From the IMG/VR virus record IMGVR_UViG_3300037400_003528, positions 1 to 64,000 of that record: a stretch of DNA of 64,000 nt, one strand, 5' to 3'. The notes beneath the pieces were generated by a model that saw only the letters and a program-made list of their open reading frames with translations, did no database searches and was not told where the DNA came from. The first letter of the stretch is position 1, and each line of letters opens with the position of its first letter. The stretch is from a virus. Below are positions 33,290 to 34,464 of this stretch, piece by piece. The position numbers and the translations under genes were made by a program.

Positions 33290-33745
33290 TTTGGTTATGA
33301 AATTTACTTGATTGATGTAAAAATGCTATCCCAAAATCCAACTATTATAATAATAGAAGGTGTATTTTGAGGTGGCATTTTTACTTGATTGTTAAAAAAT
33401 TGTGTTAAAATTTTGGTGCTATATGTAATTTACTTTAATGAAGTAATTGTTAAAAATTTTTGTTAAAAAAATGGTGCTTTATATAATTTACTTTATGTAA
33501 CTTTTTTTAATTTTTTTTATCGCTAATATATATATTTCCCAGTGAAAAAAGGCAAAAGTTTTATGTTTTAATAAATTCAATATTTTGGGCAACTTTTGAA
33601 AAGTTGCCCTTCCGCATTTTTATATATATTTGGTAATAGTAATTTTATTTTAAGTAAATATGTAAAGTTGCCCAAAAATGTCATCCCTTATATATATTGG
33701 AGATGACAAAATTGGGCAACTTTTTATGGAAAGAAAGGATTATAA
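33290..33745. repeat. intergenic repeat region: direct repeats (tggtgctWtatRtaatttactttaRtg..) and 4 copies of GGGCAACTTTT including a perfect palindrome gggcaacttttgaaaagttgccc
   Basis: iteron-like organisation upstream of a plus-strand gene; candidate ori/operator region. Confidence 0.45.
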
Positions 33746-33747
33746 AA

Positions 33748-34464
33748 ATGCAATAGTTACGAGTAGGTAAAGTATCAACTAAAGAGCTTTCAGATTGGAT
33801 GGGAGTAAAATATAAGACTTTTAGAAACCAGAAAAAACGAAAGTTAGAAGAATTAAGAAAATTTTGTGATTTTGAGGAAGTTTATGGAGGAGTTTTTATA
33901 AAATAGATATATGATGCTTGTTATAAAAAAGATGCTCCAAATGATTAGTAGGTATTTTTACATGAAATAAAAATATCTAATGAAGGACTTTCTTCTGTGG
34001 CAGGTATGGCACGAAAATTGAGAAGAGATAGTGATTATTATGGAAATTTATCGTAGAGACAAGTTTAGAGGAGAATGGGAAAGATGAATGCTTATTTTTT
34101 TGGGACATATGGAGAAAATGAAAAAGAGGCAGTTGGAAGATGTGGAAGTAGAAGATATATTTTTGCGATAAAGTTAGATGATTTTAATCATTATAGGAGA
34201 TTAACTGAGGAAGAGAAAGAAAGATTTTATCATATTGTTAAATCTGTTTGTGGAAAATAGACTGATAAGATTATAGAGAATATGCTTTTAGAGGAAGCAT
34301 TTAAGAATAGTGATATGACAAAAGAGGAGTATTTATTGAGGAAGGAAAGATTTGGGTTAAGTTTATTTCCTGATGTTTTAAGACAATTTAGGATAGAAAC
34401 AGGATTTGTTTTGGTTAGGATTCAAGAATATAAATTAAATGCTTTTTTACAAATTGCTAATTAA
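33748..34464 (+). CDS. hypothetical protein (238 codons, ~9 in-frame TAG); possible replication/regulatory protein given upstream iterons
   Basis: frame open to TAA 34462 only with TAG as sense. Confidence 0.4.

Follow-up and report, generated by a model that had tools for sequence, protein, structure and literature searches.

The window analyzed here is a 64-kb phage fragment (IMG/VR record IMGVR_UViG_3300037400_003528, positions 1 to 64,000) with a GC content of 32%, in which TAG is read as a sense codon and many open reading frames (ORFs) become longer if TAG read-through is allowed. In its middle lies a plus-strand gene for a putative DNA-binding protein (33748-34464), which is preceded by a set of repeats within an AT-rich intergenic region of 545 nucleotides (nt). 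A sequence-only reading of this locus had seen in it either a replication (Rep) protein with its iterons or an autoregulated repressor. Hereafter, W denotes the phage of the window, and L001, L005, L010, and so on denote the loci of relatives that were compared with it. The locus comprises the following features:

33748-34464, plus strand: gene for the putative DNA-binding protein, 238 codons, with seven in-frame TAG codons read as glutamine (Gln)
33748-33750, plus strand: start codon, with a ribosome-binding site GAAAGGA at 33733-33739, 8 nt before the ATG
33587-33609: candidate operator O1, a perfect 23-nt palindrome gggcaacttttgaaaagttgccc, composed as GGGCAACTTTT-G-AAAAGTTGCCC, whose half-site cores CAACT/AGTTG face inward
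33664-33685: left arm of candidate operator O2, reading AAAGTTGCCCAA (block 1), AAA, TGTCATC (block 2), with a -35-like TTGCCC at 33668-33673
33686-33701: centre of O2, the asymmetric, TATA-rich CCTTATATATATTGGA, with TATATA at 33691-33696 and the symmetry centre at 33693.5
33702-33723: right arm of candidate operator O2, reading GATGACA, AAA, TTGGGCAACTTT
33388-33437 and 33446-33495, plus strand: two direct repeats of 50 nt each, 86% identical
33317-33384: a further quasi-palindrome with 32-nt arms, 78% complementary, centred on TATTATAATAATA
34610-34643 and 34699-34720 followed by T9, plus strand: two terminator-like hairpins closing the transcript of the gene (together 34610-34720)

The repeats are most likely binding sites through which the phage protein controls its own gene, and not replication iterons. 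The motif GGGCAACTTTT occurs exactly at 33587-33597 (plus), 33599-33609 (minus), and 33714-33724 (plus), while a fourth copy, GGGCAACTTTA at 33663-33673 (minus), carries one mismatch to it, and all four lie within 140 nt (33587-33724) upstream of the gene. The number of copies, the perfect palindrome, and the longer direct repeats that had been read from the sequence are therefore all there, but the four copies are arranged as two inverted pairs, without a direct iteron array. Allowing at most one mismatch, GGGCAACTTTT has seven matches in the window versus 1.7 expected, and none of 100 shuffles reached at least seven; outside the upstream region there are three scattered single matches with one mismatch each, none of them exact. 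The arms of O2, 22 nt each, are mismatched solely at three central A/T positions, which leaves two intact blocks per arm. As DNA hairpins, O1 and O2 have predicted energies of -10.5 kcal/mol (z = -4.0) and -18.3 kcal/mol (z = -7.0), respectively; a terminator scan did not call O1 a terminator, its T-run being 7 nt distant. The 50-nt direct repeats differ in sequence from the GGGCAACTTTT motif. They are conserved in the close relative L010; a reading, without a systematic search, of the DNA upstream of the L001 and L011 homologues did not reveal them.

Comparison across relatives ties these sites to the adjacent gene. We took homologues and their flanking DNA from ENA/Logan contigs, IMG/VR, JGI metagenomes, and three Firmicute metagenome-assembled genomes (Oscillospiraceae, Clostridium, and Bacilli). 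In most of the examined lineages, a quasi-palindrome of ~60 bp lies 54-120 nt before the start codon of the homologue. The sequence of its arms is lineage-specific in more than 12 lineages, and it always adjoins a homologue:

L001 and L018: arm AAGTTGACCAAAAATGTCATC, 21 nt, perfect
L006, L007, and L011-L016: arm AGTTGTCCATTTTATTACAT, 20 nt
L005: arm ATTTGTTCCATTTTTTTAGATC, 22 nt
L035: arm TAGTTGTAGCATTTTTTTACAA, 22 nt
L009, L019, L020, L023-L029, and L034: arms of other sequences

Because a MAFFT alignment of the upstream regions is reliable only for the close clade, complementarity was instead counted per lineage, by a script that scores 26 positions in a 60-bp window. At least 19 of the 26 positions pair in 12 of 16 lineages, as they do in L034 (20) and L035 (23), and the O2 arms of W score 20; as a control, 1.8% of random 180-nt windows of the W genome reach at least 19. 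The outer AGTTG/CAACT core is common to the whole family and the inner part varies. The centre TCCCTTATATATAT is the same in W, L001, and L011 while their arms differ, which is the pattern of a promoter core plus operator. The lineage's own motif moreover recurs in an additional pair farther upstream in W, L001 (GGTCAAG/GTTGACT), L011 (GGACAAC/GTTGTCC), and L005 (extra GAACAAAT copies), which argues for recognition by a protein, since independent hairpins would not need such reuse. Between W and the 93%-identical L010, a base-by-base comparison of 33575-33747 found a single difference, in loci that are 85% identical overall. The sites thus co-vary with the regulator gene across relatives, and this co-variation, together with the promoter-like centre, points to an autoregulated DNA-binding regulator.

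The start of the encoded protein is supported by 29 full-length database homologues that align from the same Met, none of which is named by any source. Neither the protein nor 50 relatives matched a Pfam, PHROG, or NCBIfam family, yielding only weak, sub-threshold helix-turn-helix (HTH) matches. PDB sequence searches found no relative, tblastn of deposited phage genomes and a plasmid search found no homologue, and the window holds no paralogue; the IMG/VR homologue search returned one distant locus. A profile search of 1.84 billion cluster representatives, a library that carries no names, gave 573 clusters (50% identity) at E<=1e-3, nearly all of ~240 amino acids (aa). The AlphaFold model is confident (predicted local distance difference test score, pLDDT, 84.5; predicted template modeling score, pTM, 0.74) and shows what are predicted to be tandem winged-helix/HTH DNA-binding domains: an N-terminal strand-helix-helix-helix-hairpin unit (residues 7-54), a second unit (residues 66-151) built on the family's most conserved stretch GLSSVAGMxRKL, and a helical C-terminal domain (residues 154-230) that closes with a beta-strand. 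A chain with two DNA-reading units would match the two-block arms of O2. The protein is best read as a member of a large, unannotated, and previously undescribed tandem winged-helix family.

The gene also stands out by its codon usage. Its seven in-frame TAGs, which align with Gln or similar residues in homologues, bear out its earlier description as TAG-recoded. It had also been called an isolated plus-strand gene, and it is indeed the only TAG-rich gene mid-window, although the TAG-free 32732-33202 nearby is on the plus strand as well. TAG makes up 7 of its 13 Gln codons (0.54), compared with 0.35-0.52 of the Gln codons in the late packaging block, a TAG-rich region at 53.7-61.3 kb; of the 16 genes tabulated from 27 to 43 kb, 15 have no TAG among their Gln codons and one has a share of 0.20. 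The first TAG is codon 3 in W (33754-33756) and codon 2 in L010, and in recoded relatives the homologues have 4-7 TAGs, whose positions differ in part. The phage encodes the matching suppressor tRNA, tRNA-Sup(CTA):

11091-11167, minus strand: suppressor tRNA with anticodon CTA, within a 28-gene tRNA array

This tRNA would be needed in trans for reading the TAG codons of the gene, and with a TAG at codon 3, translation should depend on it. The late-block-like TAG density, the Gln-aligned TAGs, and the presence of the tRNA together place the gene in the suppressor-dependent class, which the literature links to late expression, having proposed that recoding delays late and lysis genes (PMC9523058, and PMC10607447 through the work it cites). 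The suggestion that its TAG codons imply late or conditional expression is, as a prediction, supported by codon statistics.

We propose that the locus is a self-contained regulatory cassette, made up of an autoregulated tandem winged-helix regulator whose translation would be gated by amber suppression, a reading as a whole to which we give a probability of roughly 0.6. The protein would bind a lineage-specific motif, in W AAAGTTGCCCAA, optionally extended by TGTCATC, at four copies before its own gene, two of them in the O1 palindrome and two in the O2 arms that flank the TATA-rich, promoter-like centre. The left O2 arm would lie over the -35-like TTGCCC, and the right arm would span about +1 to +20, or the first ~20 bases, of a transcript begun at the centre. 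Bound protein would thereby shut off its own transcription (negative autoregulation) and, O2 being symmetric, could shut off leftward transcription from the same centre too. The mRNA would yield protein only once tRNA-Sup(CTA) is active, which would put the regulator in the late, recoded expression class. Of the two alternatives raised earlier, it is thus the autoregulated repressor that fits the inverted sites on a promoter-like centre, their co-variation with the gene, and the winged-helix model.

The promoter signals at O2 are present in several lineages. Around 33693.5, either strand reads TTGCCC-N17-TATATA, and TTGNNC-16/18-TATATA is found on both strands in W, L001, and L011; L005 and L027 have comparable pairs with weaker minus-strand hexamers, and L027 has a near-consensus TTGTTC-17-TATATT with TGG in front. 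The assignment of a promoter to O2 is tentative nonetheless, because in the 17-nt register a (TA)n centre cannot supply -11A and -7T at once and because the sole consensus-like plus-strand promoter lies upstream. The centre TCCCTTATATATAT was also considered as a recurrent late promoter motif and rejected, having four matches (at most two mismatches) against 1.9 expected; the late block has its own promoter-like TTGATT-17-TATAAT.

Several observations weigh against the proposed cassette. The promoter scan found the only consensus-like sigma-70 plus-strand promoter upstream of the gene, TTGTTA-16-TATAAT at 33460-33487, within the second direct repeat and ~200 nt upstream, so that the palindromes may lie in a transcribed leader and not on a promoter; the direct repeats (33388-33495) are probably tandem upstream promoters. 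The (TA)n centre itself offers no canonical -7T in the 17-nt register. In several lineages the arms are perfectly complementary over 20-22 nt, which is beyond typical operator needs and would suit a hairpin or a cruciform, and the half-sites of O2 lie ~50 bp apart, a distance that a single dimer cannot span without distortion of the DNA. No other target of the protein was found in the 64 kb. Finally, distant family members are without TAG, and recoding is hence not intrinsic to the family. As the palindromes lie at or downstream of a candidate promoter in either case, bound protein would nevertheless be expected to repress rather than activate.

We weighed three other explanations. The palindromes could act as structures, namely as hairpins of a long 5' leader RNA made from the 33460-33487 promoter, with roles in RNase III processing, stability, or translation control, or as supercoiling-sensitive DNA cruciforms. 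This would agree with the only consensus-like promoter lying upstream of both palindromes, with perfect pairing over 20-22 nt in many lineages, where every position has changed between lineages and yet remains paired, and with predicted stabilities of -18 to -21 kcal/mol (z from -7 to -11). However, the four copies of the 11-nt motif change together in each lineage, and independent hairpins give no reason for such sharing. In W, the three mismatches between the arms divide each arm into two intact blocks and are A/T transversions rather than changes of the G-U type, and the family-wide AGTTG/CAACT outer core reflects conservation of sequence, not of pairing. The locus has no Rfam match either (relaxed thresholds at 31-38 kb; gathering thresholds over the whole window). 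We consider a purely structural role unlikely, though a structural role and protein binding could both hold. Still less likely is that the arms are simply the mirrored -35 elements of divergent promoters that share a palindromic -10, with the protein uninvolved. Bacteria commonly have pseudo-symmetric bidirectional promoters (PMC10268837, PMC12825309), and O2 resembles them in its symmetric A/T -10-like centre and mirrored -35-like hexamers, with TTGCCC-N17-TATATA on both strands and similar arrangements in L001 and L011 (weaker in L005 and L027). Such promoters, however, usually have starts 18 bp apart with -7T and -11A coinciding reciprocally, which (TA)n here cannot provide, and the symmetry of O2 extends over ~60 bp, far beyond what contact with RNA polymerase needs. 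A bidirectional promoter would leave unexplained the mirrored spacer (TGTCATC/GATGACA), the mirroring of up to 22 nt, and the symmetry over 60 bp, as well as the recurrence of the motif in O1 and the lineage-specific arms that track the adjacent gene; leftward, moreover, there is no gene before the convergent 32732-33202. We regard this explanation as very unlikely.

The Rep alternative of the sequence-only reading would make the protein a replication initiator, Rep-like or Orc-like, and the locus an origin, with the arms flanking a meltable (TA)n unwinding element and O1 as the autoregulatory operator. The natural comparisons are iteron plasmids (pPS10 RepA) and archaeal origins flanked by origin recognition boxes (ORBs). 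In Rep_3 systems, Rep monomers bind the iterons and dimers bind the operator. The protein shares with Rep_3-type initiators (pPS10 RepA, F RepE, R6K pi) a predicted tandem winged-helix build and a similar size (238 aa), and the sites share their logic, with long bipartite arms of 22 nt and a tight, short palindrome that reuses only one block. The (TA)n centre, the AT-rich 545-nt intergenic region, and the extra direct repeats would suit an origin too, as would the position of the locus at the point, about 32.7 kb, where the leftward and rightward gene blocks mainly diverge. But the motif forms no direct-repeat array, and the profile search of the protein against Rep families gave no match in Pfam, NCBIfam, or PHROGs, with no Rep family even at E<=1 in Pfam and PHROGs. 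For the 50 relatives, no Rep family appears among the 25 Pfam families listed (40 more lie beyond these) or in the NCBIfam and PHROG lists. There is no Rep structure among the fold matches listed and no plasmid homologue, and no DnaA boxes or replication genes were seen adjacent to the locus in the window. GC skew mostly follows gene orientation, has no inflection at the locus, and reaches its global cumulative minimum at about 53 kb. Given the Rep_3-like logic and the location at the divergence of gene orientation, we retain an initiator with its origin as an outside chance, improbable as it is in the face of these searches.

The autoregulated regulator that we favor has its closest counterparts among phage and plasmid repressors that autoregulate through palindromic operators over their own promoter, such as lambda-type CI/Cro and the winged-helix repressors of the PadR/MarR type. 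As in those systems, a gene for a putative HTH/winged-helix DNA binder adjoins inverted sites that would cover -35-like and +1 positions; these sites vary in step with the protein, and within the window the motif is restricted to the DNA upstream of the gene itself. It differs from them in that the protein belongs to no sequence family and combines two HTH units and a third domain in one 238-aa chain, and in that one operator is split, with 22-nt arms ~50 bp apart around a promoter-like centre, while translation would depend on an amber suppressor. In its codons, the gene is like the recoded late genes of TAG-to-Gln phages (crAss-like, Lak, and the Phass-1 group), which likewise use TAG as Gln at this density and carry tRNA-Sup(CTA). 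Unlike those genes, it encodes a putative transcription regulator and is located away from the structural block, with mostly TAG-free genes around it.

A more speculative and, in our view, doubtful extension is that the gene works as a code-gated timer. Its mRNA might be made from the start of infection and terminate in translation at codon 3 until tRNA-Sup(CTA) accumulates, upon which the protein might close its own symmetric promoter and, via sites beyond the window, aid the early-to-late switch. If this were true, recoding would control a dedicated transcription switch, besides the late structural and lysis proteins. The locus offers a compact case of how the code switch may be wired into transcription control, with likely operators from comparative evidence. 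If the proposed cassette is correct, the family of 573 clusters would gain a function, and translational recoding would be linked to a transcriptional feedback loop; a regulator that controls only itself would be an ordinary case of phage autoregulation, though its operator geometry is unusual.

The late block starts with a gene for a sigma-factor-like protein and also holds terminase-like and portal genes. The portal protein shares 36% identity with its counterpart in Phass-1, a TAG-recoded phage of 136 kb (PMC10607447), and 29% with the portals of ~140-kb Enterococcus siphophages; we take the phage of the window to be a TAG-recoded siphophage of Firmicutes, of roughly 135-140 kb. The first late-block gene (53688-54809, plus strand) matches phrog_5767, a family of phage sigma factors (E = 1e-45), and contains 13 TAGs in frame, which makes it a second putative transcription factor that would be suppressor-dependent. 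Two further recoded genes, at 23694-26590 on the minus strand, encode CW_7-repeat cell-wall proteins, one with a metallo-beta-lactamase fold and one of GH114, with 6 and 2 TAGs, respectively; they sit in an otherwise mostly TAG-free minus-strand block, in agreement with the reported recoding of lysis genes.

Relatives showed additional structures around the regulator gene. A second long inverted repeat with unrelated arms lies ~180 nt upstream of it in L011 (about 667-730; AAAGTATCATATTTTTTTTCA around a TATAAATATATA centre), L013, L014, and L010 (about 105-175; AAAGTATGGAAAATTT), and its equivalent in W, 33500-33560, is degenerate. In L005, a plus-strand gene for 215 aa (3711-4358) directly precedes the homologue, and its N-terminal pattern ..WLTNFYDFTFIKG.. 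recalls the family; it may be a diverged paralogue. Short GGGGGTA(T/G)-like repeats follow the gene upstream of the intergenic region, two in W (33207-33240) and four in L001 (about 9400-9800), where the DNA is also hairpin-rich; the same place is called a weak DUF1540 ORF in L002.

Downstream of the regulator gene, a repeated unit of ~125 nt has its first copy at 34916-35044 (plus strand). It consists of an inverted repeat, TTGCACAAA..N24..TTTGTGCAA, a strong promoter, TTGACA-N17-(TG)GTATAAT, and a GC-rich 5' hairpin with compensatory changes in its stem. More copies lie near 38455-38640, 39925-40075, 41165-41320, 42868-43018, 43775-43930, 44630-44800, and 47262-47412, and these promoter units indicate that 38-48 kb is transcribed on the plus strand. 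In W and eight relatives, the first unit follows the regulator gene at a distance of ~450 nt, and at 77-85% nt identity it is better conserved than the gene. The units resemble the promoter-early-stem-loop cassettes of T4-type phages. We considered whether the regulator binds the TGCACAAA inverted repeats of these early-promoter units, whose half-site is identical to its own at 9 of 11 positions, and rejected the idea, as that motif is constant where the autoregulatory motif of the relatives has changed. Six perfect GC-rich hairpins with stems of 13-16 bp (loops, for example, GTGAAGCGT and GAGAAGCAG) lie at 38595-45563, a region of raised GC (38-40%), and several of them are the 5' hairpins of the ~125-nt units.

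Elsewhere in the window, the strongest palindromes are a perfect inverted repeat (32-nt arms, 18-nt loop) and an adjoining one with 19-nt arms (48213-48294 and 48291-48362). A ROOL RNA (Rfam RF03087, 279 bits) lies inside the tRNA array at 14887-15483 (minus), and a lone tRNA-Lys(TTT) at 40129-40202 (minus), distant from the main array, duplicates the tRNA-Lys at 18183-18255. An 808-aa protein encoded at 27634-30060 (minus) carries major-vault-protein shoulder, vault-repeat, and SPFH domains (MVP_shoulder, E = 2.7e-25), a combination that is unusual in a phage.
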